Assembly: GCA_973895155.1 (NCBI GenBank)
Contig: OZ316898.1
Span: 4,092,480-4,156,479, forward strand
Source of the DNA: Marsupella aquatica
Taxonomy: Eukaryota; Plantae; Marchantiophyta
Direction: 5' to 3'
Length of the DNA: 64,000 bases
Shown here: in pieces, positions 20,794 to 58,914 of the stretch
Position numbering within the stretch: the stretch's first letter is position 1
Layout: each line of letters starts with the position of its first letter
The notes under the pieces: generated by a model
What the model was told of the DNA's origin: nothing
Databases searched by the model: none
Seen by the model: the letters and a program-made list of their open reading frames with translations, nothing else
Program-made: the position numbers and the translations under genes

Positions 20794-21222
20794 TGATGGG
20801 TGAGGTGTGGGAGTAATATGTACACCATCCTAGAGTTTTCAATATGCAATGACAGATCACAATAGAGAAAGGGTTTCCGTGATAAAGCTTACAATGAAAC
20901 ATCAATAATGAAAAATGCAAGGGTCACCCCATAATGAATATGTCATGTACACATGTAAACATCAATGCCAATCATAATCTACGAGAATCTCTTCCCCTGC
21001 TCTAATGGTGCGGGTAGCATGTGTCGAAGATGTAATGCGTACATGCTACAGGCAAACAAGGGTGACTCTGGTCATGGAACTCATGCCACTCAGCGTTTGG
21101 CCACTAGAAGAAACCCACCCTTTCTGAGACCACAAAGAACGTGACTTGTGATGCCTAGACAGGAATCACTCGGCCGGTTAAGTGGGTAAAGCAGGAAGGC
21201 ACCCTAGGAACACCTTAGTATA

Positions 21223-24200
21223 GTGACAAAACAAGGAAAATATAAACAATTAGGGGCAACCATGGAACCCGGGCAGAGGCCGGAGGTAAGGCTGAGGGTG
21301 AAAACCCGATTAGGGTTAGGGCGCGTTAAGCGTCGGCAGCTAGGAAGGATCAACGGGAAGAAGGACCGGCAGAGGAGAGGGGTAAGGAGCGCTTGCAGGA
21401 GATGGTGGCTCATTTGCGAGCACGAACTAGGCAGACGACTACGGGAGGCCAACTACTGTCAGCTGCTTAGGCAAGCACTCGGGGAGAGAGTAGATACCGA
21501 CGATCAACCTAAGGAGGGTATGAGCAACGTCAATCAAGCGGCACATTTCTGGGGATGCCTGTTCGAATGGGCAACTGAGTACATCAAGACTTACGAGGAC
21601 GAGGAGTCAGAAAGGGCAGCTCGAGAACGGTAGGAGCTCGCTCGATTGTGGGAGCTGCAGAAGACGGCTTTCTTAGGAGGCGAACTCATCAAGGACGAGT
21701 TCCTGTGGACGCCTACTTCCAATCAACTCGACGATCTTCTGTTTTGCAAAGACAGCGTCATCGGCATCCGAGAGGCCATCAAGAACTGCAACGACATACA
21801 CTGGGAATTAAAGGGTAGCACGGAAAGGTGGACCCAGGCAACGGTGCTAGGAGAAACCTCCACGGCAGCAGAGATGAAGAGGAAGGGAGCCGTCAACGAT
21901 GAAGCCACCCCGGCAAAAAGAACGAGGTCGGCGGCACCAAAGAAGCCAGCCGAGCAGCAAAGCAGGAGGCAGGGAGAAGCCGAAGAGGAGGAGGTCGATC
22001 CCATCAAGGCCATTCCAACCAGGGATGACACCTGGAAGGGCTGGGCGGCAACCCTACCGGTGGAGGTGCAACTACATTTTGCACGGGAGGAGGATGCATG
22101 CTTTACGGCCATGTAGACCAAGAAGTACCAAGGCTTCATGGCCGGATCCGGCTTGGAGGCCTTTGTAAGATTACCATGGCTGAAGCCGGAGGTACCGGAG
22201 TCAGACCTATTAGAATTCGTGGGGTCATGGGAACCCGAGACCAATTGCACGAGGATATATGGGAAGGATTTCTATCTTACTCCCAAGGTGATTGCCGAAG
22301 TGTTTGGCTTGCCGATGGGCAATAAGACCAAAGTTGATACCAGGAAGACCTTGCCTGACAAGGAGTTCCGGTCGTTCCCCGGGCCATCAACAAAGAATGG
22401 CTTCTTCCGGAACACCTGCACCAACCCGCACATAGGAGAGATGATCGACTTCTTGCGGGTGACCATGCATTGTAACTTGCCGAGGGCAGAGATCGGCAAG
22501 GCACAGGTCTATCTGGCAGAAAGGCCAGACCCAAGCCGGGACTACAACGGGTACCTCCTCAACCAATTGAAGAAGATCTTAAAGGAGGAGCAGCAGGTAA
22601 TCGGCATGGGGAGCGTGTCGCGGCTTGGCTATCACATGCCGCTGTTGTGCCGGTATGCCAGAGGTCAGACTTTTGCCCCGGTACTTCCCCTGCAGGTAAG
22701 GGCACCCGAGGAAGCTCCAACGCCGAGGCCGTTGGCTGAGAAGCCTCAACCACCTGTTAGTCCTACGATCAAGCAGGTGTTTAGGCCCAGGAAGGAAGAC
22801 TTGCCGATGCAGCAACCAGGCATGCAGAGTCTGCTGAAACTACTGGAGAAAGAAAAGAAATCGGCATCGGCAACAACAACGGCAACGGCAACAATGCAGG
22901 ACACTACTACAGAGGTAGGCCTACACCGGCTCACAAGAGAAAACCCCTTTGCTGGAGACAAGGAGAGAATCAGGCCGGAATCCAAGCCAGGTGTTCGAAT
23001 GTACGTGGGAACCTCAAGCTCCGAATCTGAGGCAGAATTGCCTGAAGCTCCTACCGAGGAAGAGGAGAGGGAGAAGCCGGAAATCCAAGAGGTAGAGGAG
23101 GCAGTGGAGGACTGCAGCCATGATAATTCCGGCTATGGGTCGGACCATCACGTTGCAGGAGTAAGGACCTGTGGCCGGTTTGTCCCCACACTTCCAAGGG
23201 TAGTGCGAGGGGACCCCAACCAGCAGGGTAGCCCTGAGTCTCCCCCACCAGATGTTGCTCCCCCGAGCTTCGACGACATAAAACAGACGGTGCAGGAATT
23301 TCAGGAGCGAATCAAGCAGGAGGAAGAGGCCGCCCTGGCTAAGGAAAAGGATTTACCAGGAGGAGATTGGCCGGAGGACATCAGGCGGCTAGCCGAAAAA
23401 GGAAGCAAACCTCTAGCCACGATTGAAGAGATCCGCAGGACGGCTTGGGAGCAGAGGCCACGATGGGCGATGCCGATCACTTCTACTTACTCCACCTACG
23501 CTAAGAATAGAGCCATGGAGTATGGTGAGATGTGTGGGGAACTTGCGCTCGGCATCTTTGGAGAGGAGTTGGAGGTAGGACCCTTTTTCCATAGGGAGCA
23601 GTTGGAGAAGCACCAATTAGAAGAAGCGGTGGCTTTAGAGAGAAGCAAGAAGGACGAGGTCATTCGGCGGCTTAGGAGGATGGGAGCCGAGATTGAAGAT
23701 CTAAGGGCGGCCAAGAAAGCCCAAGATGAACTGCGGATTAAACGACATGAGCTGAACATCATGCAGGGGCAGTTGGACGCCGCGCAGGCTGATAATCAGA
23801 ATATCAAGGATAAACTGACTCAGACGCAGGAAGAGTTGGCCGACACGATCAAAGAAAGGGAAAAGTGGAAGCAAGAGCTGAAGAATACAGAGGAGGCCCA
23901 CATAACAGCCAACAGCCGGGCCATGGCGGAGACCCAAAGAAAGGAATGGGCGTTGAAAGGGGAGCTCGAGAAAATCCGCGGAGCCCTTGAGCAGAAGGAG
24001 GTCGAGTTAGGGAAATCCTATCAAGGGATTATGGTGCTGCAGCAGGAGCTTGCGTCCCTGACGGCCAGCTTCAAGGCCGACCTAAGGGAGAAGGACGAGA
24101 TGCTCGAACAGACTTACGCCAAGATGAACCAGATGGAGTCTGTCATCATTGCAGAGCTCGACAAGGAGCTAAGAGCAACCCAGGAGGAGAAGGCTCCCTT

Positions 24201-24873
24201 GAAGAAGGAATTGGAGGAAGCCCACAGGGAGCAGGAGGAGGCCAAAAACGAGCTGGAGGGGGCACGTAAGGACCTGGATGAAACCCAAGAGGAGTTGGAG
24301 GAAATCACGAGGAAGATGGAGAACCTACAGCGGCGGGCCGACAACCAAACAGAGCGGCTGAAGAAACAAGCCGCAGTATTTAAATGCTTAGCTGCAGCAG
24401 GTCCATCTCCTGTTGGGACAAACCAGTTACCAGGGGTGGTAATTGCCGAAGGACAAGCCGCGCCACCTGCACCAGTGCCGGAGGTAAGTGGGAAGGGGAA
24501 GGGACCAGCTGCCGAGCCACCAACGAAGAAGAAGCGGAAACCTTCAGGGTCAAGGAGTAATACGACTTCACAGGCCGTGGTGATCAAGGAGGTAGACCCA
24601 GCACCGACCCCAGACAGGGTCACGGCTAAGGATCCAACTACCCTAGGGGAAGGGGAGGCCGAAGCTGTGGGGTTGGCTGAAGCCGAAGCCGTGGGGGTGG
24701 CTGAAGCCGAAGCCGTGGGAGTTGTCGAGGCTGAAGCCGAAGGTGGACCCAGTCAGGCCGATGGAGAGTTGACTCGGTCAAGGGCAGGTAATCTGTCAGT
24801 AGGCGGGCCAACGGCAGTGGCTGAGGAGGAAGTGTTGGGGGCGTCCATTGAGGATCCACCACCGGTGTCGTGA
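21223..24873 (+). pseudogene. LTR-encoded ~1216-aa ORF, 5' LTR copy, with two CAG>TAG stops (21631, 22114)
   Basis: Collinear with the intact copy at 45222-48872. Confidence 0.92.
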
Positions 24874-25588
24874 CGGTGCAAGGGCGCCGTTCCTTTTAGG
24901 GAGGGCGGACGTGGAGGGAGGAGGCGTGAGTGGGCAGGGCGGGCACGGATCTCCACGTTTAGGATTAGGATCAGAACCAGGAGCGGCCCTGACACTTAGC
25001 TTAGTGGGATTGCGGTCCCACTGGTAGGAGCAACACTTGTGCTCCTGCCTTGCTGTACATAGGTAGATTCGGGCAAGTAGATTACTGTTAAGTAGATTAG
25101 GCTTACGATGCAAAGAATGGCGGATCCACTACCAGGATAAGTACCTGGGCAGCGGGGAGCTCAGGGCCTCTTCTTTAGCAAGTTTTTAGTTTGCACCAGC
25201 CGGGCTGGGATCAAGTAGTACGAGAAGCTCTCGGTTAGTCATACAGTGACCCTTGTGTATATTCATGTTTCCTCATGCCTAAGAGCTGAATAGAGTTGGC
25301 CTCACGGCTTAGTTCGCAGAACTTGTGTATGAGATGTACTGTTTGTATGGCAAGTGCATGGTATGACTCAGTCAGAATGAGTCATTTTGCTATTTGTGTG
25401 TCGCATTAACTTGTGTGAAGAGTGCCCACATCAACAGAAGGAAGGAAAGTAAGCAGGGGAGTGAGAGTTGGATGTGTCGAGCTGAGAGAGGTCTTAGCGG
25501 CTTAACCAAGCCTATTGGGGATCATTCCGGCGGCGGAATCCAAACATACCTAACAAGACGGAGGGGAAGACAGGGGAAGACAGGGGAA

Positions 25589-25603
25589 GGCCTATATTAG
25601 GCC
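25589..25603 (+). promoter_or_regulatory. Candidate LTR TATA box GGCCTATATTAGGCC, preceded by 3 x (C/G)AGGGGAAG
   Basis: TATA-like motif ~200 bp from the LTR 3' end, present in all four LTRs. Function is inferred from position only. Confidence 0.45.
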
Positions 25604-25798
25604 GGCTACGTATCTCATGACCCGATGAAGGATCTGTCCAGTATATGTGTGTAAAATGTTAATAGTAGTAGTAGAAGGTTAGCAGCGTCCCATGCCGCTA
25701 AGCCGCGGAAACGGCCTCGCCAAGCACGAAACCTGCGGGAATCGGCTTGAGCTGGGGGGTTTCTTGGGTTTAGGGAGCCATGGGACGCACCACATTTT

Positions 25799-25817
25799 TG
25801 GCGCTAGATGGAGGGGG
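25799..25817 (+). promoter_or_regulatory. Primer binding site TGGCGCTAGATGGAGGGGG, probably tRNA-Asn
   Basis: Starts 4 nt after the 5' LTR. Near-complementary to the plant cytosolic tRNA-Asn 3' end as I recall it (...CCCCUCCUUCUAGCG-CCA). Confidence 0.75.
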
Positions 25818-25863: not shown

Positions 25864-28857
25864 ATGACTGACCTTACGCCGAGGGAAGAAAGAGTGATTC
25901 AACGGGAGAGAGCTCGACTGCAGCAGCTCGCCGGGTGGCATGATACACAGCGACTGAGAGGGGCAGAAAGAGCTGGTAGCTCCGAAACTGGAAGTGGCGT
26001 CGAAGAAGACATACCAAAAGAAGAGTCGGTAAGGAGAAGTGAGTCTCCAACCGACATGGGGGAACCAGAGGCACGGCCAGACGAGAGGCCAGGGACCAGA
26101 TTGAGCCAGCGGTCGCGCATACATTACAAGGCATTTCATGGGAGAGGAGATGAGGATCCGGACGAATGGTTGGATGATTTCGAGGGAACCGCTGCAGCAA
26201 ATGGAGAATCGGCCATCAAGATGCAGATTCTTCCCGGCCTGTTCAAGGGTGAGGCTAGGCCTTGGTACAGAGCATTAGATGTGGAAGATCAAGCCATCTA
26301 GGATATCTTCAAAACACTCTTTGTTAAGGAGTTTCGACCCATTGGAACTTCAGAACTAGCAGTGCTGAAGTTGGGACAACTTCGGTTCAAGGAGAACAAA
26401 TCCTTCAGGAAGTTCTTGCAACGCTTTCAGAAACTGGTAAGACGTACAAAGACCAATGCATCTGAAGGTATGCAACTTCAATGGTTGGTGAATGCTTTGC
26501 CACAGAAGATGAGTTTTGCAATTAGGAAGGAGAACCCGGAGACCTTAGCCGAAGCAATTAAGGATATTCAATTATACATTAATGCAGATATCACAAGCCG
26601 GAAGAAACAGCTTAAGTCTGAGAGTTCCTCATCAGAGGAGGGATCACCCCATAAGAAAAAAGATAAGAAGAAGAAACATTCCAAGAAGTCTAGAAGTGAT
26701 AAGTCAAGCTCGGATAGTGGGAGTAGCAAGAGTGAGTCATCTTCTAGTTCTGAAGAAGAAAAAACTAGGAAAAGGAAGGGCAAAAGGAGAGGGAAGATGA
26801 AAGTCAAGATGGAGGCTAAGCCACCAGATAACATCGTAGCCCTTACCGAGCAACTTAAGGCTATCATTGCAGAGGTAAAACCAAAGAAGAAGGTAGTACA
26901 GGAGGATAGCTCTGTATGGTGTGCCTTATGTTATAAAACCGGACACCATAAAGATGCTTGTCCTAAGCTTAATACTAATCATGTTCGGCATGTGGCCGAG
27001 ATCAGACCATGTCAGGGAGAAGTAGAGTACTTTTTGGGAGATGCCACTGATAGTGTTTTCGGCATCAGTGAGACTGGAGCACGAGACCTATCCAACAGAC
27101 CTGCATCTCTGTGGTCAGGGTTAAGGAACAATCCAGGAGAGATGTATCCTCGGATTATTCAGAACCCGTCAGTACCTCCTAGGCCGAATGTGCAAAGATT
27201 TGCGGCGTGCTATAATTGTGGTCAACCTGGCCATTTTGCTAGAGAATGCCCGAATGCACGCAAACAGGGTGATGGACAACCAGCTCAGCTATGTATGGGA
27301 TGCCGACAGGAAGGTCATATGCTAGGGCAATGTCCTACTTGGTTGGCAGGCCTGGCCGCAAATCATAAGCTTTTGCCGATCAAGATCTTACCGCCAGGTA
27401 CTACCCCCGGAGGAGTTCAAATCAACCACATCGAACTAGGATGGCAAGAGGATGCCGAGGCAGAGTTCGTACCATCTGATGATGAGGCCGAAGCCCTATC
27501 AACCTTCTCAGAGGAGGATTTAGATCATGATTGCTACCGGGTCTCTACTCGATCTACCAGAAGGAAGGAAAGGTGGGATGGGCTGGCCAAAAATAAAGGG
27601 AAGGTTACGGAGGAAAGGATCGACTCTTCGTCAACATCAACAGAAGGAGAAGGGAGGGCTCCGGCAATACAGGTAAGCCATGAGCCCACCAGTGAAACCA
27701 ATCCTTCACAAGATAGCGACTTCAATCGAGATCATCCTAAGTTGTTCTACCCCTCTGTTATGGCTAGTGTTAAGGAACAACTAAGAGAATTAGAAACCCT
27801 GGAGAATACCGAAGCCATTGCCAAGGATGTAAAACGAGCAAAAGCATTGTTTGCTTCGGAAGACCCAACAGCTGTGGAGACTAGCGTGGCAAAACTGGCC
27901 GAATCCAAGACGGAAACACCACCAGAAGAGAAGCCGATTGTTCCCTATGACCTGGCTAAAGATGTACTAGAATCTAGAGTCTCGGCAACAGTAGGTCAAC
28001 TATTGAAAAATAGCCCGTACTTCCGGAAGCAATTAAGGAAGGCTATTCTCGGCAAGCCGAGATTACCCAAGGTAGCAACCAGATCCGACGTACTAATGAT
28101 AGAAGAAGATCAAGGAGCCCCAGCATTACCATTAATGATTCAAGGAGAATTATTACTACGGGTACCCATCGATGGAGGATCAGGGGTATGTATTATGATC
28201 GATTCAACAGCAAAAGGGTGGGGTCTAACACCGGAGATGACTGGAAGAGTGTTGAACATGGCCAATGGATATCAGGTCATTCCGACGGGAGTGTTAACCG
28301 GCATCAAGACAGAGATAGGAGGTATCTTCTTTAGCATTAACTATGTAGTAATGAAGCCGGTAAATCCTACGTCATTCCGGCTATTGATTGGTAGGCCATG
28401 GCTATACCTAGCCGAGGTAATAGAAGATTGGGGTAAAAAGCAGTTCACTTTCGGGACCCCCTCTATCACGGTATCCTGGGACACTAAGGATGACCGTAGG
28501 AAAAGCATAAGGGAAGTAGATGGGTACGATAGTGGACTGGAGTCAGCCGATGAAGTACGTTGGTTAGAATGCTTCACTAACCTAACCAAAGAAGGTGTCT
28601 TTGGACCAGAGGTACCCCCCAGCGGATTATGGCAAGAACCAATGGAAGGTGACTTGGAAGAAGAAGACGAAGAGGTCGAGGACTGCTTTACAATAGAATC
28701 CACCTTTTTAGCTGCAATTCCGGAGGAAGTTAAGGATGTAGACCAATTGGATGAAACGGCTAAGTGGGGAGCAGTAGCAGGGACAGTGGATTTTCTGCAG
28801 GCGTTGTGGCAGAGCCGACGGGGTCCACAACGCCATCGATCATCGGCAAGGAATTAA
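25864..28857 (+). CDS. gag: Gag-protease ORF with one premature TAG at 26299 (likely from TGG)
   Basis: Capsid-like FHGRGDEDPDEWLDDFE..FKGEARPWY; three CCHC knuckles (CALCYKTGHHKDAC, CYNCGQPGHFAREC, CMGCRQEGHMLGQC); aspartic protease IDGGS..LLIGRPWL. ORFs 25864 and 26362 share a frame. Confidence 0.93.
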
Positions 28858-31800
28858 ATACCAAGGGATCGGCATACAAGCCGATTACGAGGGCAGAACA
28901 AATTGAGGCCCTATTAGAAGCCGAGAGAGCACAGCGGCCTAACTCTCAGGAGCAAGAGGTGGATGAGATGGACAGACACGATCCAGAGCCAAGGCAGGAA
29001 GGGGAGCCGACCACTAATTCAAAACCGAATAGACCGGTAAGGGGACAATCTATGGACACCAAGGAAGGGACCGACTCGGCTAGTCCAACCGAGATCCCAA
29101 TTTATGGAGGTATGAGATTAGAGAGACTGGAAGCCGAACTGGACCCGAATTTGAAGAAGCAGATTAATATGATCCAAGCACGGCAATATTGGAAGCTCGA
29201 CTTAGGAGAGGGAAGAGAACTGAACTTAGGGAGAAACCTAGCACCTGAGCTCGAGAAAGAGATCAGTGACTTATTGATTGAATTTCAGGATGTGTTTGCA
29301 TGGAGTCACCAAGATCTAAAGGGCGTAGATCCAACACTAGGGGAACATCGAATTGATCTCATGTTAGGAGCCAAATCATTTCGACAACCAATTCGAAGGA
29401 TGAACCCGAAGTATTCCCTGCTGGTCAAAACAGAAATCGACAAACTAGTGGAAGCTGGATTCATCACTCCAGTCCTGCATTCAGACTGGGTGTCTCCAAT
29501 TGTGATAGTTCCCAAGAAAGCTGGACCCGATGGTAAACCCAAGATCCGGGTTTGTCAGGATTACAGGAAGCTGAATGAAGCAACATTAAAAGACCATTTT
29601 CCTTTACCGTTTACTGATATGGTACTAGACATGGTAGCCAGTCATGAACTATATTCATTCATGGATGGATACTCTGGTTACAACCAAATCAGGATTCGAC
29701 AGGAAGACCAAATCAAGACGGCCTTCATCACGGAATGGGGGATCTATATCTTCAATCGTATGCCGTTTGGACTCTGCAACGCACCAGCTATGTTCCAACG
29801 ATTAATGGTGAACATTTTTCATGATTACTTGAGAAAGTTCATGGAAATCTTCATTGATGACTTTGCAGTATTCGGGAAGGCATCGAAACATGCTAAATAC
29901 CTCAGGAAAACCTTCATGAGATGTAGGGAGGTGGGTCTCAAGTTACACCCAGATAAATGTTTTTTTGCAGTAACCGAGGGGGTGCTACTAGGTCACAAGG
30001 TATCAAGGAAGGGCATTGAGATTGACAAAGGTAAGCTAGCAGTATGGCTAGATATCATGCAACCTAAGAACATAAAGGATGTAAGATCCTTCTTGGGATG
30101 CATTGGTTACTATCGCCGGTTCATCAAGGATTTTGCCAAGCTAGCTTTACCATTAACCAATATGCTCAAGGCAGGAGCAGACTTCGAACCCACACCCGAA
30201 CGAGTCACAGCGGTGGTAGAATTGAAGCAGACGTTAGTAGAGGCCCCAGTCATGATAGCACCGGACTGGAACAAAGATTTTCATGTTTTTGTAGATGTCT
30301 CGGGCTTCTGTATTGGCTCAGTACTAAGTCAGTTGGATGAGAAAGGAAGGGACCATCCCATATACTTCGCAAGCCGTCAGCTTGCCGATGCCGAACGGAA
30401 CTACTCTACCACGGAAAGAGAAGCATTAGGAGTCATTTATTCTTGTAAAAAGTTTAGGCATTATTTACTAGGGTACAAGGTAATCTTTCATACTGATCAT
30501 GAAAGTTTGAAGTACCTAGTCAATAAGCCGGACCTTATAGGCAGAGTAGCAAGATGGATTTTGCTATTACAGGAGTTTAACTATGAGCTGAGGATCAAGC
30601 CAGGAAAGTTACATGCCAATGCCGACTTCTTTTCAAGGATCACAGGTAAACCTGCCACGGATTGCATCGATGATCGATTCCCCGACGAGGAGCTATTCGT
30701 TGTGGAAATAGCTGGTACATGGTACCCTGAGATTCTACAATTTCTCAGCACTTCCAGATTACAGCCAGGATTAAGCCGAGAGCAAGCCGCAGTCTTTGTG
30801 CGGAAGGTCAGACAGTATCAGTGCATTAAAGGCATACTGCACAAGCATGGAATCAACGGCACGATTCAAAGGTGTTTGGAGAAGAGAGAGGTAAAACGAG
30901 TCCTACGGGCCATGCATGGAGAGGAGGCCGGAGGACATTTTGCCCCAGTAACCACGTCTAAGAAGATATTAAATGCCGGTTACTGGTGGCCCACCTTGCA
31001 CAAAGATGTCTATCAGTTTATCAAACAATGCGATCCTTGTCAACGAGCGGGAGGACCAAGGGCGTCCACCAGGCATCCACTGCACCCTATTCTACCTCTA
31101 GCACCATTCGAGAAGTGGGGTATTGATTACATTGGACCTCTGAAACCACTGACCCACCCTCGACGGAACAAGTACATAATCCTGGCTACGGATTATGCAA
31201 CTAAATGGGTAGAGGCCAGACCAACAACGAAGGATGATGCAATTACTACGGCTAGATTTATGTATGAGCAGATCTTCACCAGGTATGGAGCACCCCTAGA
31301 ATTAGTTAGTGATAGAGGAACCCATTTTTTGAATGATATAATTAGTCGTTTAAATGAGCAGTATTTAGTTAAACATAGGCCTACTACTCCCTACCATCCA
31401 AAGGCAAACGGGTTGACAGAACGAGCAAACGGAATCATAGGAAAGATATTGAACAAGACAGTAGCTCAGAACAAACTCGATTGGGATGATAAATTGTTTG
31501 CTGCTGTTTTTGCTTACAATCTGGCCTATAAATCCACTACCGGTCATACACCCTTCTTCTTAACCTTTGGACAAGAAGCCCTGGTACCCATGCAACTTGA
31601 GATACCGACATTTCAAGTTACAATTGAGGAAAGAGCCTCAGCGGAGGAGAGCCTAAAGGAGCGAGAATATAGGTTAGAAGCTTTAGAGGAAGCGAGAATG
31701 ATTTCAGCCGAGAGAGTAGAATATAGACAGAATATCATGAAGCAGCAGTATGATAAAAGGTTAAAAGTAGTTAGTATTCATACCGGTGATCTTGTGCTAC

Positions 31801-32030
31801 TTTATGACAGTAGGTATAGTAGGTTTCCAGGAAAGCTTTACACTCGCTGGTTAGGACCCTTTAGAGTAACCATGATGTTCCCCAATGGCTCCGTGCAATT
31901 GGCCAACATTACGGGAGAGGTATATCCAGTTCGCATCCATTATGACCGCCTCAAGAAATACTATATGGACGAAGATGAAGTTGTTCGCGAGGACGCTTCA
32001 CAATTAAGTGGGGAGCTATGTGATGCCTAG
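28764..32030 (+). CDS. pol: Pol (RT-RNase H-integrase), uninterrupted; stop codon lies inside the 3' LTR
   Basis: RT DYRKLN, DGYSGYNQI, MPFGLCNAP, FIDDF; RH DVSGFCIG, YSTTEREAL, TDH; INT H..H..CDPC zinc finger, WGIDYIGP, SDRG, NGLTER, GPF motif. Confidence 0.98.
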   Translation: MGSSSRDSGFSAGVVAEPTGSTTPSIIGKELNTKGSAYKPITRAEQIEALLEAERAQRPNSQEQEVDEMDRHDPEPRQEGEPTTNSKPNRPVRGQSMDTKEGTDSASPTEIPIYGGMRLERLEAELDPNLKKQINMIQARQYWKLDLGEGRELNLGRNLAPELEKEISDLLIEFQDVFAWSHQDLKGVDPTLGEHRIDLMLGAKSFRQPIRRMNPKYSLLVKTEIDKLVEAGFITPVLHSDWVSPIVIVPKKAGPDGKPKIRVCQDYRKLNEATLKDHFPLPFTDMVLDMVASHELYSFMDGYSGYNQIRIRQEDQIKTAFITEWGIYIFNRMPFGLCNAPAMFQRLMVNIFHDYLRKFMEIFIDDFAVFGKASKHAKYLRKTFMRCREVGLKLHPDKCFFAVTEGVLLGHKVSRKGIEIDKGKLAVWLDIMQPKNIKDVRSFLGCIGYYRRFIKDFAKLALPLTNMLKAGADFEPTPERVTAVVELKQTLVEAPVMIAPDWNKDFHVFVDVSGFCIGSVLSQLDEKGRDHPIYFASRQLADAERNYSTTEREALGVIYSCKKFRHYLLGYKVIFHTDHESLKYLVNKPDLIGRVARWILLLQEFNYELRIKPGKLHANADFFSRITGKPATDCIDDRFPDEELFVVEIAGTWYPEILQFLSTSRLQPGLSREQAAVFVRKVRQYQCIKGILHKHGINGTIQRCLEKREVKRVLRAMHGEEAGGHFAPVTTSKKILNAGYWWPTLHKDVYQFIKQCDPCQRAGGPRASTRHPLHPILPLAPFEKWGIDYIGPLKPLTHPRRNKYIILATDYATKWVEARPTTKDDAITTARFMYEQIFTRYGAPLELVSDRGTHFLNDIISRLNEQYLVKHRPTTPYHPKANGLTERANGIIGKILNKTVAQNKLDWDDKLFAAVFAYNLAYKSTTGHTPFFLTFGQEALVPMQLEIPTFQVTIEERASAEESLKEREYRLEALEEARMISAERVEYRQNIMKQQYDKRLKVVSIHTGDLVLLYDSRYSRFPGKLYTRWLGPFRVTMMFPNGSVQLANITGEVYPVRIHYDRLKKYYMDEDEVVREDASQLSGELCDA
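28788..28847 (+). promoter_or_regulatory. -1 programmed ribosomal frameshift signal: slippery G GAT TTT plus H-type pseudoknot
   Basis: The heptamer is in the gag-pro frame within the gag/pol overlap. After a 5-nt spacer comes a perfect 10-bp stem GGCGTTGTGG/CCACAACGCC (28800-28809/28825-28834). Loop GCCGA (28814-28818) is complementary to TCGGC (28843-28847). Pol is in the -1 frame. Confidence 0.82.
32006..32018 (+). promoter_or_regulatory. Polypurine tract AAGTGGGGAGCTA inside the integrase coding sequence
   Basis: Immediately precedes the TG of the 3' LTR at 32019. Confidence 0.8.
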
Positions 32031-35000
32031 ACAGGAATCACTCGGCCGGTTAAGTGGGTAAAGCAGGAAGGCACCCTAGGAACACCTTAGTATAGTGACA
32101 AAACAAGGAAAATATAAACAATTAGGGGCAACCATGGAACCCGGGCAGAGGCCGGAGGTAAGGCTGAGGGTGAAAACCCGATTAGGGTTAGGGCGCGTTA
32201 AGCGTCGGCGGCTAGGAAGGATCAACGGGAAGAAGGACCGGCAGAGGAGAGGGGTAAGGAGCGCTTGCAGGAGATGGTGGCTCATTTGCGAGCACGAACT
32301 AGGCAGACGACTACGGGAGGCCAACTATTGTCAGCTGCTTAGGCAAGCACTCGGGGAGAGAGTAGATACCGACGATCAACCTAAGGAGGGTATGAGCAAC
32401 GTCAATCAAGCGGCACATTTCTGGGGATGCCTGTTCGAACGGGCAACTGAGTACATCAAGACTTACGAGGACGAGGAGTCAGAAAGGGCAGCTCGAGAAC
32501 GGCAGGAGCTCGCTCGATTGTGGGAGCTGCAGAAGACGGCTTTCTTAGGAGGCGAACTCATCAAGGACGAGTTCCTGTGGACGCCTACTTCCAATCAACT
32601 CGACGATCTTCTGTTTTGCAAAGACAGCGTCGTCGGCATCCGAGAGGCCATCAAGAACTGCAACGACATACACTGGGAATTAAAGGGTAGCACGGAAAGG
32701 TGGACCCAGGCAACGGTGCTAGGAGAAACCTCCACGGCAGCAGAGATGAAGAGGAAGGGAGCCGTCAACGATGAAGCCACCCCGGCAAAAAGAACGAGGT
32801 CGGCGGCACCAAAGAAGCCAGCCGAGCAGCAGAGCAGGAGGCAAGGAGAAGCCGAAGAGGAGGAGGTCGATCCCATCAAGGCCATTCCAACCAGGGATGA
32901 CACCTGGAAGGGCTGGGCGGCAACCCTACCGGTGGAGGTGCAACTACATTTTGCACGGGAGGAGGATGCATGCTTTACGGCCATGCAGACCAAGAAGTAC
33001 CAAGGCTTCATGGCCGGATCCGGCTTGGAGGCCTTTGTAAGATTACCATGGCTGAAGCCGGAGGTACCGGAGTCAGACCTATTAGAATTTGTGGGGTCAT
33101 GGGAACCCGAGACCAATTGCACGAGGATATATGGGAAGGATTTCTATCTTACTCCCAAGGTGATTGCCGAAGTGTTTGGCTTGCCGATGGGCAATAAGAC
33201 CAAAGTTGATACCAGGAAGACCTTGCCTGACAAGGAGTTCCGGTCGTTCCCCGGGCCATCAACGAAGAATGGCTTCTTCCGGAACACCTGCACCAACCCG
33301 CACATAGGAGAGATGATCGACTTCTTGCGGGTGACCATGCATTGTAACTTGCCAAGGGCAGAGATCGGCAAGGCACAGGTCTATCTGGCAGAAAGGCCAG
33401 ACCCAAGCCGGGACTACAACGGGTACCTCCTCAACCAATTGAAGAAGATCTTAAAGGAGGAGCAGCAGGTAATCGGCATGGGGAGCGTGTCGCGGCTTGG
33501 CTATCACATGCCGCTGTTGTGCCGGTATGCCAGAGGTCAGACTTTTGCCCCGGTACTTCCCCTGTAGGTAAGGGCACCCGAGGAAGCTCCAACGCCGAGG
33601 CCGTTGGCTGAGAAGCCTCAACCACCTGTTAGTCCTACGATCGAGCAAGTGTTTAGGCCCAGGAAGGAAGACTTGCCGATGCAGCAACCAGGCATGCAGA
33701 GTCTGCTGAAACTACTGGAGAAAGAAAAGAAATCGGCATCGGCAACAACAACGGCAACGGCAACAATGCAGGACACTACTACAGAGGTAGGCCTACACCG
33801 GCTCACAAGAGAAAACCCCTTTGCTGGAGACAAGGAGAGAATCAGGCCGGAATCCAAGCCAGGTGTTCGAATGTACGTGGGAACCTCAAGCTTCGAATCT
33901 GAGGCAGAATTGCCTGAAGCTCCTACCGAGGAAGAGGAGAGGGAGAAGCCGGAAATCCAAGAGGTAGAGGAGGCAGTGGAGGACTGCAGCCATGATAATT
34001 CCGGCTATGGGTCGGACCATCACGTTCCAGGAGTAAGGACCTGTGGCCGGTTTGTCCCCACACTTCCAAGGGTAGTGCGAGGGGACCCCAACCAGCAGAG
34101 TAGCCCTGAGTCTCCCCCACCAGATGTTGCTCCCCCGAGCTTCGACGGCATAAAACAGACGGTGCAGGAATTTCAGGAGCGAATCAAGCAGGAGGAAGAG
34201 GCCGCCCTGGCTAAGGAAAAGGATTTACCAGGAGGAGATTGGCCGGAGGACATCAGGCGGCTAGCCGAAAAAGGAAGCAAACCTCTAGCCACGATTGAAG
34301 AGATCCGCAGGACGGCTTGGGAGCAGAGGCCACAATGGGCGATGCCGATCACTTCTACTTACTCCACCTACGCTAAGAATAGAGCCATGGAGTATGGTGA
34401 GATGTGTGGGGAACTTGCGCTCGGCATCTTTGGAGAGGAGTTGGAGGTAGGACCCTTTTTCCATAGGGAGCAGTTGGAGAAGCACCAATTAGAAGAAGCG
34501 GTGGCTTTAGAGAGAAGCAAGAAGGACGAGGTCATTCGGCGGCTTAGGAGGATGGGAGCCAAGATTGAAGATCTAAGGGCGGCCAAGAAAGCCCAAGATG
34601 AACTGCGGATTAAACGACATGAGCTGAACATCATGCAGGGGTAGTTGGACGCCGCGCAGGCTGATAATCAGAATATCAAGGATAAACTGACTCAGACGCA
34701 GGAAGAGTTGGCCGACACGATCAAAGAAAGGGAAAAGTGGAAGCAAGAGCTGAAGAATACAGAGGAGGCCCACATAACAGCCAACAGCCGGGCCATGGCG
34801 GAGACCCAAAGAAAGGAATGGGCGTTGAAAGGGGAGCTCGAGAAAATCCGCGGAGCCCTTGAGCAGAAGGAGGTCGAGTTAGGGAAATCCTATCAAGGGA
34901 TTATGGCGCTGCAGCAGGAGCTTGCATCCCTGACGGCCAGCTTCAAGGCCGACCTAAGGGAGAAGGACGAGATGCTCGAACAGACTTACGCCAAGATGAA

Positions 35001-36666
35001 CCAGATGGAGTCTGTCATCATTGCAGAGCTCGACAAGGAGCTAAGAGCAACCCAGGAGGAGAAGGCTACCTTGAAGAAGGAATTGGAGGAAGCCCACAGG
35101 GAGCAGGAGGAGGCCAAAAACGAGCTGGAGGGGGCACGTAAGGACCTGGATGAAACCCAAGAGGAGTTGGAGGAAATCACGAGGAAGATGGAGAACCTAC
35201 AGCGGCGGGCCGACAACCAAACAGAGCGGCTGAAGAAACAAGCCGCAGTATTTAAATGCTTAGCTGCAGCAGGTCCATCTCCTGTTGGGACAAACCAGTT
35301 ACCAGGGGTGGTAATTGCCGAAGGACAAGCCGCGCCACCTGCACCAGTGCCGGAGGTAAGTGGGAAGGGGAAGGGACCAGCTGCCGAGCCACCAACGAAG
35401 AAGAAGCGGAAACCTTCAGGGTCAAGGAGTAATACGACTTCACAGGCCGTGGTGATCAAGGAGGTAGACCCAGCACCGACCCCAGACAGGGTCACGGCTA
35501 AGGATCCAACTACCCTAGGGGAAGGGGAGGCCGAAGCTGTGGGGTTGGCTGAAGCCGAAGCCGTGGGGGTGGCTGAAGCCGAAGCCGTGGGAGTTGTCGA
35601 GGCTGAAGCCGAAGGTGGACCCAGTCAGGCCGATGGAGAGTTGACTCGGTCAAGGGCAGGTAATCTGTCAGTAGGCGGGCCAACGGCAGTGGCTGAGGAG
35701 GAAGTGTTGGGGGCGTCCATTGAGGATCCACCACCGGTGTCGTGACGGTGCAAGGGCGCCGTTCCTTTTAGGGAGGGCGGACGTGGAGGGAGGAGGCGTG
35801 AGTGGGCAGGGCGGGCACGGATCTCCACGTTTAGGATTAGGATCAGAACCAGGAGCGGCCCTGACACTTAGCTTAGTGGGATTGCGGTCCCACTGGTAGG
35901 AGCAACACTTGTGCTCCTGCCTTGCTGTACATAGGTAGATTCGGGCAAGTAGATTACTGTTAAGTAGATTAGGCTTACGATGCAAAGAATGGCGGATCCA
36001 CTACCAGGATAAGTACCTGGGCAGCGGGGAGCTCAGGGCCTCTTCTTTAGCAAGTTTTTAGTTTGCACCAGCCGGGCTGGGATCAAGTAGTACGAGAAGC
36101 TCTCGGTTAGTCATACAGTGACCCTTGTGTATATTCATGTTTCCTCATGCCTAAGAGCTGAATAGAGTTGGCCTCACGGCTTAGTTCGCAGAACTTGTGT
36201 ATGAGATGTACTGTTTGTATGGCAAGTGCATGGTATGACTCAGTCAGAATGAGTCATTTTGCTATTTGTGTGTCGCATTAACTTGTGTGAAGAGTGCCCA
36301 CATCAACAGAAGGAAGGAAAGTAAGCAGGGGAGTGAGAGTTGGATGTGTCGAGCTGAGAGAGGTCTTAGCGGCTTAACCAAGCCTATTGGGGATCATTCC
36401 GGCGGCGGAATCCAAACATACCTAACAAGACGGAGGGGAAGACAGGGGAAGACAGGGGAAGGCCTATATTAGGCCGGCTACGTATCTCATGACCCGATGA
36501 AGGATCTGTCCAGTATATGTGTGTAAAATGTTAATAGTAGTAGTAGAAGGTTAGCAGCGTCCCATGCCGCTAAGCCGCGGAAACGGCCTCGCCAAGCACG
36601 AAACCTGCGGGAATCGGCTTGAGCTGGGGGGTTTCTTGGGTTTAGGGAGCCATGGGACGCACCACA
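32019..36666 (+). repeat. 3' LTR (4648 bp)
   Basis: Direct repeat of 21147-25794, followed by TSD TGACT. Confidence 0.98.
32095..35745 (+). pseudogene. LTR-encoded ~1216-aa ORF, 3' LTR copy, with two CAG>TAG stops (33565, 34642)
   Basis: Collinear with the intact copy at 45222-48872. Confidence 0.92.
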
Positions 36667-47300: not shown

Positions 47301-48948
47301 CTTCCTGGGCCTAAACACCTGCTCGATCGTAGGACTAACAGGTGGTTGAGGCTTCTCAGCCAACGGCCTCGGCGTTGGAGCTTCCTCGGGTGCCCTTACC
47401 TGCAGGGGAAGTACCGGGGCAAAAGTCTGACCTCTGGCATACCGGCACAACAGCGGCATGTGATAGCCAAGCCGCGACACGCTCCCCATGCCGATTACCT
47501 GCTGCTCCTCCTTTAAGATCTTCTTCAATTGGTTGAGGAGGTACCCGTTGTAGTCCCGGCTTGGGTCTGGCCTTTCTGCCAGATAGACCTGTGCCTTGCC
47601 GATCTCTGCCCTCGGCAAGTTACAATGCATGGTCACCCGCAAGAAGTCGATCATCTCTCCTATGTGCGGGTTGGTGCAGGTGTTCCGGAAGAAGCCATTC
47701 TTCGTTGATGGCCCGGGGAACGACCGGAACTCCTTGTCAGGCAAGGTCTTCCTGGTATCAACTTTGGTCTTATTGCCCATCGGCAAGCCAAACACTTCGG
47801 CAATCACCTTGGGAGTAAGATAGAAATCCTTCCCATATATCCTCGTGCAATTGGTCTCGGGTTCCCATGACCCCACAAATTCTAATAGGTCTGACTCCGG
47901 TACCTCCGGCTTCAGCCATGGTAATCTTACAAAGGCCTCCAAGCCGGATCCGGCCATGAAGCCTTGGTACTTCTTGGTCTGCATGGCCGTAAAGCATGCA
48001 TCCTCCTCCCGTGCAAAATGTAGTTGCACCTCCACCGGTAGGGTTGCCGCCCAGCCCTTCCAGGTGTCATCCCTGGTTGGAATGGCCTTGATGGGATCGA
48101 CCTCCTCCTCTTCGGCTTCTCCCTGCCTCCTGCTCTGCTGCTCGGCTGGCTTCTTTGGTGCCGCCGACCTCGTTCTTTTTGCCGGGGTGGCTTCATCGTT
48201 GACGGCTCCCTTCCTCTTCATCTCTGCTGCCGTGGAGGTTTCTCCTAGCACCGTTGCCTGGGTCCACCTTTCCGTGCTACCCTTTAATTCCCAGTGTATG
48301 TCGTTGCAGTTCTTGATGGCCTCTCGGATGCCGACGACGCTGTCTTTGCAAAATAGAAGATCGTCGAGTTGATTGGAAGTAGGCGTCCACAGGAACTCGT
48401 CCTTGATGAGTTCGCCTCCTAAGAAAGCCGTCTTCTGCAGCTCCCACAATCGAGCGAGCTCCTGCCGTTCTCGAGCTGCCCTTTCTGACTCCTCGTCCTC
48501 GTAAGTCTTGATGTACTCAGTTGCCCGTTCGAACAGGCATCCCCAGAAATGTGCCGCTTGATTGACGTTGCTCATACCCTCCTTAGGTTGATCGTCGGTA
48601 TCTACTCTCTCCCCGAGTGCTTGCCTAAGCAGCTGACAGTAGTTGGCCTCCCGTAGTCGTCTGCCTAGTTCGTGCTCACAAATGAGCCACCATCTCCTGC
48701 AAGCGCTCCTTACCCCTCTCCTCTGCCGGTCCTTCTTCCCGTTGATCCTTCCTAGCCGCCGACGCTTAACGCGCCCTAACCCTAATCGGGTTTTCACCCT
48801 CAGCCTTACCTCCGACCTCTGCCCGGGTTCCATGGTTGCCCCTAATTGTTTATATTTTCCTTGTTTTGTCACTATACTAAGGTGTTCCTAGGGTGCCTTC
48901 CTGCTTTACCCACTTAACCGGCCGAGTGATTCCTGTCTAGGCATCACA
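44301..48948 (-). mobile_element. Solo LTR of the gypsy family (4648 bp, reverse orientation)
   Basis: Full reverse-complement LTR with TSD GTGTT on both sides. The empty site is visible in the paralog at ~61460. Confidence 0.98.
45222..48872 (-). CDS. Intact LTR-encoded protein, 1216 aa from GTG (1203 aa from the first ATG): basic N-terminus, transposon-associated central domain, acidic linker, long coiled coil, low-complexity tail
   Basis: Uninterrupted 3651-bp ORF wholly inside the LTR. GLEAFV..LLEFVGSW..IYGKDFYLTPKVIAEVFGLP resembles Athila-ORF/PMD/Transposase_32-like extra ORFs. About 270 aa of heptad-rich E/K/L/Q sequence; NLS-like PPTKKKRK. Confidence 0.9.
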   Translation of the reverse strand: MTKQGKYKQLGATMEPGQRSEVRLRVKTRLGLGRVKRRRLGRINGKKDRQRRGVRSACRRWWLICEHELGRRLREANYCQLLRQALGERVDTDDQPKEGMSNVNQAAHFWGCLFERATEYIKTYEDEESERAARERQELARLWELQKTAFLGGELIKDEFLWTPTSNQLDDLLFCKDSVVGIREAIKNCNDIHWELKGSTERWTQATVLGETSTAAEMKRKGAVNDEATPAKRTRSAAPKKPAEQQSRRQGEAEEEEVDPIKAIPTRDDTWKGWAATLPVEVQLHFAREEDACFTAMQTKKYQGFMAGSGLEAFVRLPWLKPEVPESDLLEFVGSWEPETNCTRIYGKDFYLTPKVIAEVFGLPMGNKTKVDTRKTLPDKEFRSFPGPSTKNGFFRNTCTNPHIGEMIDFLRVTMHCNLPRAEIGKAQVYLAERPDPSRDYNGYLLNQLKKILKEEQQVIGMGSVSRLGYHMPLLCRYARGQTFAPVLPLQVRAPEEAPTPRPLAEKPQPPVSPTIEQVFRPRKEDLPMQQPGMQSLLKLLEKEKKSASATTTATAPMQDTTTEVGLHQLTRENPFVGDKERIRPESKPGVRMFVGTSSSESEAELPEAPTEEEEREKSEIQEVEEAVEDCSHDNSGYGSDHHVPGVRTCGRFVPTLPRVVRGDPNQQSSPESPPPDVAPPSFDGIKQTVQEFQERIKQEEEAALAKEKDLPGGDWPEDIRRLAEKGSKPLATIEEIRRTAWEQRPRWAMPITSTYSTYAKNRAMEYGEMCGELALGIFGEELEVGPFFHREQLEKHQLEEAVALERSKKDEVIRRLRRMGAEIEDLRAAKKAQDELRIKRHELNIMQGQLDAAQADNQNIKDKLTQTQEELADTIKEREKWKQELKNTEEAHITANSRAMAETQRKEWALKGELEKIRGALEQKEVELGKSYQGIMALQQELASLTASFKADLREKDEMLEQTYAKMNQMESVIIAELDKELRATQEEKATLKKELEEAHREQEEAKNELEGARKDLDETQEELEEITRKMENLQRRADNQTERLKKQAAVFKCLAAAGPSPVGTNQLPGVVIAEGQAAPPAPVPEVSGKGKGPAAEPPTKKKRKPSGSRSNTTSQAVVIKEVDPAPTPDRVTAKDPTTLGEGEAEAVGLAEAEAVGVAEAEAVGVVEAEAEGGPNQADGELTRSRAGNLSVGGPTAVAEEEVLGASIEDPPPVS

Positions 48949-54278: not shown

Positions 54279-57200
54279 TGTGATGCCTAGACAGGAATCA
54301 CTCGGCCGGTTAAGTGGGTAAAGCAGGAAGGCACCCTAGGAACACCTTAGTATAGGGACAAAACAAGGAAAATATAAACAATTAGGGGCAACCATGGAAC
54401 CCGGGCAGAGGCCGGAGGTAAGGCTGAGGGTGAAAACCCGATTAGGGTTAGGGCGCGTTAAGCGTCGGCGGCTAGGAAGGATCAACGGGAAGAAGGACCG
54501 GCAGAGGAGAGGGGTAAGGAGCGCTTGCAGGAGATGGTGGCTCATTTGCGAGCACGAACTAGGCAGACGACTACGGGAGGCCAACTACTGTCAGCTGCTT
54601 AGGCAAGCACTCGGGGAGAGAGTAGATACCGACGATCGACCTAAGGAGGGTATGAGCAACGTCAATCAAGCGGCACATTTCTGGGGATGCCTGTTCGAAC
54701 GGGCAACTGAGTACATCAAGACTTACGAGGACGAGGAGTCAGAAAGGGCAGCTTGAGAACGGCAGGAGCTCGCTCGATTGTGGGAGCTGCAGAAGACGGC
54801 TTTCTTAGGAGGCGAACTCATCAAGGACGAGTTCCTGTGGACGCCTACTTCCAATCAACTCGACGATCTTCTGTTTTGCAAAGACAGCGTCGTCGGCATC
54901 CGAGAGGCCATCAAGAACTGCAACGACATACACTGGGAATTAAAGGGTAGCACGGAAAGGTGGACCCAGGCAACGGTGCTAGGAGAAACCTCCACGGCAG
55001 CAGAGATGAAGAGGAAGGGGGCCGTCAACGATGAAGCCACCCCGGCAAAAAGAACGAGGTCGGCGGCACCAAAGAGGCCAGCCGAGCAGCAGAGCAGGAG
55101 GCAGGGAGAAGCCGAAGAGGAGGAGGTCGATCCCATCAAGGCCATTCCAACCAGGGATGACACCTGGAAGGGCTGGGCGGCAACCCTACCGGTGGAGGTG
55201 CAACTACATTTTGCACGGGAGGAGGATGCATGCTTTACGGCCATGCAGACCAAGAAGTACCAAGGCTTCATGGCCGGATCCGGCTTAGAGGCCTTTGTAA
55301 GATTACCATGGCTGAAGCCGGAGGTACCGAAGTCAGACCTATTAGAATTCGTGGGGTCATGGGAACCCGAGACCAATTGCACGAGGATATATGGGAAGGA
55401 TTTCTATCTTACTCCCAAGGTAATTGCCGAAGTGTTTGGCTTGCCGATAGGCAATAAGACCAAAGTTGATACCAGGAAGACCTTGCCTGACAAGGAGTTC
55501 CGGTCGTTCCCCGGGCCATCAACGAAGAATGGCTTCTTCCGGAACACCTGCACCAACCCGCACATAGGAGAGATGATCGACTTCTTGCGGGTGACCATGC
55601 ATTGTAACTTGCCGAGGGCAGAGATCGGCAAGGCACAGGTCTATCTGGCAGAAAGGCCAGACCCAAGCCGGGACTACAACGGGTACCTCCTCAACCAATT
55701 GAAGAAGATCTTAAAGGAGGAGCAGCAGGTAATCGGCATGGGGAGCGTGTCGCGGCTTGGCTATCACATGCCGCTGTTGTGCCGGTATGCCAGAGGTCAG
55801 ACTTTTGCCCCGGTACTTCCCCTGCAGGTAAGGGCACCCGAGGAAGCTCCAACGCTGAGGCCGTTGGCTGAGAAGCCTCAACCACCTGTTAGTCCTACGA
55901 TCGAGCAGGTGTTTAGGCCCAGGAAGGAAGACTTGCCGATGCAGCAACCAGGCATGCAGAGTCTACTGAAACTACTGGAGAAAGAAAAGAAATCGGCATC
56001 GGCAACAACAACGGCAACGGCAACAATGCAGGACACTACTACAGAGGTAGGCCTACACCGGCTCACAAGAGAAAACCCCTTTGCTGGAGACAAGGAGAGA
56101 ATCAGGCCGGAATCCAAGCCAGGTGTTCGAATGTACGTGGGAACCTCAAGCTCCGAATCTGAGGCAGAATTGCCTGAAGCTCCTACCGACAAAGAGGAGA
56201 GGGAGAAGCCGGACGTCCAAGAGGTAGAGGAGGCAGTGGAGGACTGCAGCCATGATAATTCCGGCTATGGGTCGGACCATCACGTTCCAGGAGTAAGGAC
56301 CTGTGGCCGGTTTGTCCCCACACTTCCAAGGGTAGTGCGAGGGGACCCCAACCAGCAGAGTAGCCCTGAGTCTCCCCCACCAGATGTTGCTCCCCCGAGC
56401 TTCGACGGCATAAAACAGACGGTGCAGGAATTTCAGGAGCGAATCAAGCAGGAGGAGGAGGCCGCCCTGGCTAAGGAAAAGGATTTACCAGGAGGAGATT
56501 GGCCGGAGGACATCAGGCGGCTAGCCGAAAAAGGAAGCAAACCTCTAGCCACGATTGAAGAGATCCGCAGGACGGCTTGGGAGCAGAGGCCACGATGGGC
56601 GATGCCGATCACTTCTACTTACTCCACCTACGCTAAGAATAGAGCCATGGAGTATGGTGAGATGTGTGGGGAACTTGCGCTCGGCATCTTTGGAGAGGAG
56701 TTGGAGGTAGGACCCTTTTTCCATAGGGAGCAGTTGGAGAAGCACCAATTAGAAGAAGCGGTGGCTTTAGAGAGAAGCAAGAAGGACGAGGTCATTCGGC
56801 GGCTTAGGAGGATGGAAGCCGAGATTGAAGATCTAAGGGCGGCCAAGAAAGCCCAAGATGAACTGCGGATTAAACGACATGAGCTGAACATCATGCAGGG
56901 GCAGTTGGACACCGCGCAGGCTGATAATCAGAATATCAAGGATAAACTGACTCAGACGCAGGAAGAGTTGGCCGACACGATCAAAGAGAGGGAGAAGTGG
57001 AAGCAAGAGCTGAAGAATACAGAGGAGGCCCACATAACAGCCAACAGCCGGGCCATGGCGGAGACCCAAAGAAAGGAATGGGCGTTGAAAGGGGAGCTCG
57101 AGAAAATCCGCGGAGCCCTTGAGCAGAAGGAGGTCGAGTTAGGGAAATCCTATCAAGGGATTATGGCGCTGTAGCAGGAGCTTGCGTCCCTGACGGCCAG

Positions 57201-58914
57201 CTTCAAGGCCGACCTAAGGGAGAAGGACGAGATGCTCGAATAGACTTACGCCAAGATGAACCAGATGGAGTCTGTCATCATTGCAGAGCTCGACAAGGAG
57301 CTAAGAGCAACCCAGGAGGAGAGGGCTACCTTGAAGAAGGAATTGGAGGAAGCCCACAGGGAGCAGGAGGAGGCCAAAAACGAGCTGGAGGGGGCACGTA
57401 AGGACCTGGATGAAACCCAAGAGGAGTTGGAGGAAATCACGAGGAAGATGGAGAACCTACAGCGGCGGGCCGACAACCAAACAGAGCGGCTGAAGAAACA
57501 AGCCGCAGTATTTAAATGCTTAGCTGCAGCAGGTCCATCTCCCGTTGGGACAAACCAGTTACCAGGGGTGGTAATTGCCGAAGGACAAGCCGCGCCACCT
57601 GCACCAGTGCCGGAAGTAAGTGGGAAGGGGAAGGGACCAGCTGCCGAGCCACCAACGAAGAAGAAGCGGAAACCTTCAGGGTCAAGGAGTAATACGACTT
57701 CACAGGCCGTGGTGATCAAGGAGGTAGACCCAGCACCGACCCCAGATAGGGTCACGGCTAGGGATCCAACTACCCTAGGGGAAGGGGAGGCCGAAGCCGA
57801 GGGAGTGGCTGAGGCCGAAGCCGTGGGTATTGCCGAGGCCGGTGTCGAGGCTGAAGCCGAAGGTGGACCCAGTCAGGCCGATGGAGAGTTGACTCAGTCA
57901 AGGGCAGGTAATCTGTCAGAGAATGAACCTACGGCAGTGGCTGAGGAGGAAGCGTTGGGGGCGTCCATTAAGGATCCACCACCGGTGTCGTGACGGTGCA
58001 AGGGCGCCGTTCCTTTTAGGGAGGGCGGACGTGGAGGGAGGAGGCGTGAGTGGGCAGGGCGGGCGCGGATCTCCACGTTTAGGATTAGGATCAGAACCAG
58101 GAGCGGCCCTGACACTTAGCTTAGTGGGATTGCGGTCCCACTGGTAGGAGCAACACTTGTGCTCCTGCCTTGCTGTACATAGGTAGATTCGGGCAAGTAG
58201 ATTACTGTTAAGTAGATTAGGCTTACGATGCAAAGAATGGCGGATCCACTACCAGGATAAGTACCTGGGCAGCGGGGAGCTCAGGGCCTCTTCTTTAGCA
58301 AGTTTTTAGTTTGCACCAGCCGGGCTGGGATCAAGTAGTACGAGAAGCTCTCGGTTAGTCATACAGTGACCCTTGTGTATATTCATGTTTCCTCATGCCT
58401 AAGAGCTGAATAGAGTTGGCCTCACGGCTTAGTTCGCAGAACTTGTGTATGAGATGTACTGTTTGTATGGCAAGTGCATGGTATGACTCAGTCAGAATGA
58501 GTCATTTTGCTATTTGTGTGTCGCATTAACTTGTGTGAAGAGTGCCCACATCAACAGAAGGAAGGAAAGTAAGCAGGGGAGTGAGAGTTGGATGTGTCGA
58601 GCTGAGAGAGGTCTTAGCGGCTTAACCAAGCCTATTGGGGATCATTCCAGCGGCGGAATCCAAACATACCTAACAAGACGGAGGGGAAGACAGGGGAAGA
58701 CAGGGGAAGGCCTATATTAGGCCGGCTACGTATCTCATGACCCGATGAAGGATCTGTCCAGTATATGTGTGTAAAATGTTAATAGTAGTAGTAGAAGGTT
58801 AGCAGCGTCCCATGCCGCTAAGCCGCGGAAACGGCCTCGCCAAGCACGAAACCTGCGGGAATCGGCTTGAGCTGGGGGGTTTCTTGGGTTTAGGGAGCCA
58901 TGGGACGCACCACA
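54279..58914 (+). mobile_element. Solo LTR of the gypsy family (4636 bp)
   Basis: TGTGATG...CACCACA with TSD GGATC on both sides. 12 bp shorter in the AEAEAVG repeat. The empty site is visible in element A at ~39355. Confidence 0.98.
54394..57993 (+). pseudogene. LTR-encoded ORF, second solo-LTR copy, with three C>T stops (54754, 57172, 57241)
   Basis: Collinear with the intact copy; stops are CGA>TGA and 2 x CAG>TAG. Confidence 0.92.

Follow-up and report, generated by a model that had tools for sequence, protein, structure and literature searches.

A 1,203-residue reading frame inside the long terminal repeats of a Ty3/gypsy retrotransposon from Marsupella aquatica

In retroelements, each round of reverse transcription places the sequence from the polypurine tract (PPT) to the RNA end in both long terminal repeats (LTRs), and solo LTRs retain it. 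The superantigen gene sag of mouse mammary tumour virus (MMTV), a vertebrate retrovirus, encodes a membrane protein of about 320 amino acids (aa). The sag/naf ORF is located in U3 of the LTR and is copied to both ends of the provirus (PMC9412291). The extra open reading frames (ORFs) of plant retrotransposons have been placed in the internal region in the descriptions consulted (PMC7264820, PMC6317226, PMC11963269, PMC3485330, PMC2533021, PMC6431247). Here we analysed a 64,000-nt stretch of the Marsupella aquatica genome (Marchantiophyta; contig OZ316898.1, positions 4,092,480 to 4,156,479; hereafter the window), in which a Ty3/gypsy LTR retrotransposon carries an ORF wholly inside its LTR, as MMTV does with sag. 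No homology with sag is claimed. In the literature we found no plant retrotransposon with an LTR-internal ORF, although our exact-phrase searching may miss other wordings. The methods text of PMC6317226 is silent on ORF scanning of LTRs, and such ORFs could be among its elements.

Several plant systems resemble this locus in part. Athila elements carry a 3' extra ORF (PF03078/PF20167); 166 matches to ATHILA ORF-1 in 3' sense ORFs are reported in PMC6317226, and a sunflower Athila ORF encodes 487 aa with a Transposase_32 domain and a predicted nuclear localisation signal (NLS) (PMC11728184). The element shares with Athila a sense ORF directly behind pol, a non-chromovirus gypsy affiliation, 5-bp target site duplications (TSDs) and one RNase H. 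However, the Athila ORFs described in PMC7264820 are internal, between pol and the 3' LTR, and the ORF found here is longer (1,203 aa) and gave no Pfam match at threshold. PMD-A of Ogre and the host PMD-C proteins MAIN/MAIL represent a transposon-borne, likely chromatin-acting domain family (PMC5418596). In contrast to our element, Ogre has an extra RNase H, its PMD ORFs are 3' antisense in 431 of 434 elements (PMC6317226), and no PMD match was found in the LTR ORF. Retrosat2/RIRE3 (ORF0), Retand (TRP28 ORFs) and Ogre are also plant gypsy elements with 3-6 kb LTRs and extra ORFs, but in the cited descriptions these lie before gag or between pol and the 3' LTR, none inside the LTR. By analogy, the locus would resemble MMTV sag in its layout; its position and likely domain recall the Athila 3' ORFs, and its proposed role recalls that of VANC, the anti-silencing protein of Mutator-like DNA transposons.

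The LTR and its reading frame

Self-BLAST of the window detected one repeat in four copies, L1 to L4, with 98.4-99.5% identity (Table 1). All four start with TGTG and end with CACA. The L1/L2 pair surrounds gag and pol and is bounded on both sides by the TSD TGACT; L3 and L4 are solo LTRs. A paralogous host stretch (61425-61510) contains the empty L3 site with a single GTGTT, so the LTR borders were fixed independently. This empty site, the TG..CA ends, the TSDs, the primer-binding site (PBS) behind L1 and the PPT before L2 together establish the 4,648-bp unit as an LTR. A first-pass annotation of the window had delimited all copies by these ends, TSDs, PBS and PPT; the ends and TSDs were borne out for all four, but PBS and PPT are present only for the full element. 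L1 and L2 differ at 24 positions (Kimura two-parameter distance 0.0052), indicating a young insertion. Contigs from all four runs compared (four organisms, four studies; 103 to 28,289 contigs per run) covered all 30 LTR bins at a likeness of at least 80%.

Table 1. Features of the retrotransposon family in the window
Feature	Position	Strand	Remarks
L1, 5' LTR of full element	21147..25794	+	4,648 bp, TG..CA; TSD TGACT at 21142-21146
LTR ORF copy in L1	21262..24873	+	2 private stops, near 21631 and 22114
PBS	25799..25815	+	starts with TGG, 4 nt behind L1
gag (Retrotrans_gag, zinc knuckle) and protease-like motif	25864..28857	+	one stop at 26299-26301
Candidate central PPT	28761..28772	+	exact 12-nt copy of PPT, at gag-pro/pol overlap
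pol ORF (reverse transcriptase, one RNase H, integrase)	28764..32030	+	ends at nt 10-12 of 3' LTR
PPT	32005..32016	+	inside pol coding frame, 2 nt before L2
L2, 3' LTR of full element	32019..36666	+	TSD TGACT at 36667-36671
LTR ORF copy in L2	32134..35745	+	2 private stops, near 33565 and 34642
L3, solo LTR	44301..48948	-	TSD GTGTT; within PHD/BRCT-encoding stretch
Non-coding LTR tail in L3	44301..45221	-	921 nt, LTR nt 3728-4648
Open LTR ORF in L3	45222..48833	-	1,203 aa from first ATG
L4, solo LTR	54279..58914	+	4,636 bp; TSD GGATC; more diverged family member
LTR ORF copy in L4	54394..57993	+	3 private stops and one in-frame 12-nt gap

A single sense frame of L3 is free of stops across LTR nt 62-3727 (1,221 codons). 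The encoded protein has 1,216 aa when counted from a GTG at LTR nt 77. Starting instead at the first ATG, LTR nt 116, gives 1,203 aa, and the ORF then occupies 78% of the LTR. We refer to the L3 product as P0001 and number it from the GTG (position 48872). In 1,000 base shuffles of LTR nt 1-3730, read in six frames, the longest stretch without a stop averaged 180 codons and never exceeded 378. The same long frame was confirmed in all four LTRs. It contains 2, 2 and 3 stops in L1, L2 and L4, all seven of which are private single-base changes, and no frameshift was found among the four copies. These results agree with the first-pass description of a shared frame that is intact in the solo LTR L3 and disrupted elsewhere by private nonsense changes.

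Transitions at CG/CHG sites account for 21 of the 24 differences between L1 and L2. The stops belong to them, which indicates that the ORF decayed after insertion. The 20 private changes comprise 9 non-synonymous, 7 synonymous and 4 stop changes (expected 55%, 37% and 7.5%). L4 differs from L1-L3 by clusters at LTR nt 3522-3576 and 3654-3664, and its 12-nt gap falls in an EAEAVG-like peptide array encoded by a 24-nt repeat.

The direct terminal repeats with TG..CA ends, TSDs, PBS and PPT, together with the domain order gag, reverse transcriptase, RNase H, integrase (Pfam), identify the element as a Ty3/gypsy LTR retrotransposon. Its PBS is presumably of the tRNA-Asn type; no tRNA gene was found in the window. 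The gag-pro part, whose protease-like motif was recognised by eye, and the pol part are in two frames that overlap by 94 nt at 28764-28857 (-1 shift), which may reflect programmed frameshifting, splicing or decay. Pfam located a single RNase H stretch in pol (aa 477-605) and the integrase zinc finger from aa 707; it detected no second RNase H, and no chromodomain behind the integrase at E<=0.1. The pol frame crosses the PPT and stops within the first nucleotides of the 3' LTR, so the element has no 3' internal region at all. A chromovirus was ruled out by the missing chromodomain, and Tat lineages with an additional RNase H (TatI-III, Ogre, Retand) by the single RNase H. Phygy and Selgy were ruled out by the three 5-bp TSDs, versus 4 bp in the lineage table of PMC6317226. 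With 5-bp TSDs, no additional RNase H and no chromodomain, the element fits Athila or a Tat lineage lacking the additional RNase H, such as Tat Z (lineage traits as given in PMC6317226, PMC10508981 and PMC13468544).

Relatives and predicted properties of the protein

A protein search with aa 14-500 of P0001 against 1.84 billion representatives gave 21 matches at E<=0.001, the best with 41% identity over 224 aa. One of them (P0019) was dropped because it consisted of bacterial repeats. The homology of the remaining 20 relatives spans aa 104-484; neither the basic N-terminus nor, in local alignment, the C-terminal half is covered by any of them. Two of 10 relatives looked up are named as proteins of Calypogeia fissa; the search with alignment A2 supplied a third. 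Such liverwort relatives and the CG plus CHG decay suggest a land plant as the host. In the relative P0028, the domain, linker and coil follow in the same order as in the LTR ORF. Word-index searches matched none of 7,992 candidates with residues 50-500 alone and none of 2,832 with alignment A1 (lengths 1379-3935 only). With alignment A2, 3 of 7,995 matched, two being rows of A2 itself. No genomic context of relatives was found in metagenome contigs (queried with the LTR ORF and P0028) or viral contigs (queried with pol).

In the family contigs, eight of the 12 indels listed (of 27) lay in the non-coding 20% of the LTR (P 5e-4). Among the non-private ORF variants listed (40 of 698 rows), 1 of 28 fell in codons 1-520 (P 3e-6, with a border chosen post hoc). 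Synonymous changes numbered 15 of 38 against 11.7 expected (P 0.16). In a further test they numbered 6 of 14 against 4.5 (P 0.29), or 17 of 36 against 10.3 with clustered changes included (P 0.012). The conserved part of the ORF is the globular domain and not the coil. From homology and frame conservation, rather than from the ratio of non-synonymous to synonymous rates (dN/dS), we conclude that the LTR ORF is very probably a real coding gene.

From N to C terminus, P0001 has a basic N-terminus, a helical region (aa 104-260), the conserved domain (aa ~270-484), a low-complexity linker, a coiled-coil-like region (aa ~800-1050), the motif KKKRK at 1103-1107 and an acidic tail. The coiled coil and NLS-like motif had been noted in the first pass and are borne out, the former by its composition. 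The earlier reading of no evident transmembrane helix also stood. The highest 19-residue Kyte-Doolittle mean was 1.07 in P0001 and 0.83-0.88 in five relatives, so neither P0001 nor these relatives have the transmembrane helix of an Env-like protein.

The domain itself had been called Athila-ORF/PMD-like. Pfam did not support this call: no Transposase_32, ATHILA or PMD match reached the curated threshold (0 of 1, 0 of 21 and 0 of 17 sequences). Language-model features gave a remote likeness to these families of 0.88 and 0.87, below the 0.9 line, and the top structural match of the domain model was VANC21 of VANDAL21 (183 residues aligned), a weak link. On these two results, the call is a lead. 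Foldseek against PDB and viral structures gave no match at E<=0.001, nor did its 2 chains when re-examined, and PDB profile searches returned nothing relevant. The single-sequence fold prediction was of low quality (predicted local distance difference test score, pLDDT, 36). VANC proteins combine a conserved domain with variable regions that contain peptide repeats (PMC5735166), to which the EAEAVG-like array may be compared. The aa ~270-484 domain probably has a Transposase_32/PMD/VANC-related fold, and we predict that the protein binds DNA in the nucleus as members of this kind would.

Position of the gene, its origin and its possible role

The 921-nt tail behind the ORF contains TATA-like words at LTR nt 4447 and 4496, a UG-rich stretch and a short tandem repeat. 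It is likely to comprise the promoter, R and U5, and we infer, with good but not full confidence, that the ORF lies in U3 (the unique 3' part of the LTR). Its origin is best accounted for, with somewhat less assurance, by a shift of the PPT. An ancestral Athila-type internal 3' accessory ORF would have been pulled into U3 when the plus strand came to be primed further upstream, from a purine run within the 3' end of pol. A TTTT-plus-purine run at nt 3748 (21 nt behind the ORF stop), unique in the LTR, may be a relic PPT, but with 19 purine runs of at least 11 nt in the LTR it is only a hint. Genomic RNA would start in the tail and include a single copy of the ORF, behind pol; expression of the ORF would rely on a subgenomic RNA, either spliced or from an internal promoter. 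The Athila ORF is read from a spliced subgenomic RNA (PMC7197481, PMC7264820); here neither a splice donor ahead of gag nor acceptors at LTR nt 71/76 exceeded background.

In the protein, the aa 270-484 domain would then contact element DNA and the coiled coil would mediate oligomerisation; acting in trans, the protein would protect the element from silencing. The anti-silencing role is tentative, and we hold it somewhat below an even chance. The whole explanation, an Athila-type 3' gene brought into U3 by a PPT shift and encoding a nuclear, DNA-binding, silencing-protective product, is evenly balanced. The first-pass interpretation, an accessory gene relocated into U3 whose nuclear product may be an anti-silencing or integration-tethering factor, is partly supported. 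None of the 21 CG/CHG transitions between L1 and L2 fell in the tail (P 0.019), and only 3 places in it vary among the four copies. A tail nearly free of such post-insertion transitions suggests low methylation there.

A rival reading keeps the architecture but gives the protein another job, that of an integration-targeting, chaperone or particle-scaffold factor. In its favour, target-motif arrays of the VANC kind were not found in the tail, where no 5-8-mer exceeded shuffles (ungapped, non-degenerate motifs), and CG/CHG mutations are heavy in the ORF region of every copy, so that protection, if any, does not extend over the whole element. The ~250 aa of coiled-coil-like sequence in the protein and the SMC-like matches to extra ORFs of Retand, Ogre and Athila (PMC6317226) also point that way. 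However, conservation sits in the globular domain and not in the coil, and both leads for this domain point to chromatin-acting families. We regard such a job as somewhat unlikely.

The main rival to the U3 position places the ORF in a very long R or U5. A promoter within the first 125 nt would make each LTR, also a solo one, a self-contained gene; the poly(A) signal would lie in the tail, and gag-pol RNA would arise by read-through or splicing. In its favour, the LTR has a single TATAAA, at nt 95, the second in-frame ATG (nt 374) coincides with the start of homology (relative P0008 begins there), the UG-rich stretch behind the stop resembles a plant 3' untranslated region by eye, and MMTV has a U3 promoter for sag (PMC9412291). 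Against this, the context of the ATG at nt 116, ACCATGG, is strong. None of the four copies has a stop in the 86 codons preceding nt 374 (chance 0.024), yet they would lie ahead of a start site 30 nt behind the nt-95 TATA. Moreover, the TATA-like words at nt 4447 and 4496 are at the usual distance from the LTR end, and a minus-strand strong stop of ~4.5 kb would be required. We regard this arrangement as unlikely and keep U3 as the more probable position.

That the LTR captured the ORF from a host gene or a different transposon, as a passenger under little selection, is very unlikely. PMD/DUF1985-type domains do move between Mutator-like elements, gypsy elements and host genes (PMC5418596), the dN/dS figures are not decisive and the C-terminal half varies between copies. 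But the frame is kept in all four copies save for private stops, indels avoid the ORF, variants avoid its conserved half, and the ORF is intronless and in the usual 3' sense position behind pol. Finally, the idea that the 4.6-kb unit, given its unusual size and coding content, is a non-autonomous element or mis-delimited repeat is refuted by its TG..CA ends, the 5-bp TSDs on the L1/L2 pair and both solo copies, the adjoining PBS and PPT and the empty site, and self-BLAST showed no short terminal repeat inside it.

A candidate central PPT, neighbouring sequences and implications

The 15.5-kb element has its midpoint at 28906, and the exact 12-nt PPT copy, first seen by eye, lies ~140 nt away in a reading frame different from that of the PPT. 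Two PPT matches occurred in none of 100 shuffles. Central PPTs are known from EVADE, Ty1 and HIV (PMC7197481). A second PPT near the midpoint would divide plus-strand synthesis into ~7.6 and ~7.9 kb.

Two diverged copies (70-84% identical) of a PHD-finger- and BRCT-encoding stretch lie at 42325-50669 and 59572-63709, and are possibly cargo of another transposon. L3 sits in one of them, and the other shows the empty site. The window also contains a Ty1/copia reverse transcriptase fragment (RVT_2, 2947-3648), a CACTA transposase fragment (Transposase_21, 19114-19590), tandem arrays (57/171-bp, 13-72-bp, 77-bp and a perfect 72-bp duplication) at 5247-5736, 8423-10163, 39440-39600 and 43549-43692, and a dispersed 260-bp repeat pair.

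Plant LTRs are usually regarded as non-coding, and solo-LTR formation as the host's removal of element genes. Here the coding part makes up 78% of the LTR; two solo LTRs retain the gene, and in one of them it is intact. This architecture is real and unusual, and would provide a plant example of an LTR border shifting to include a gene. As a decidedly speculative extension, an abundant plant retrotransposon family may have placed an anti-silencing gene of the VANC kind within its LTR. Each solo LTR, formed when the host deletes an element, would then be an expressible counter-defence gene acting in trans on the family, and a central PPT would offset the cost of a 4.6-kb repeat. If true, this would be a retrotransposon counterpart of VANC, and its 1,203 aa are far more than in the LTR-borne genes we found described. 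If the gene is expressed, its dosage would track the number of LTRs and not the number of elements. What the Athila/Tat extra ORFs do is a question of long standing, which becomes directly testable through the possible link between this domain and Transposase_32/ATHILA, together with a weaker one to the solved structure of VANC21 with DNA.

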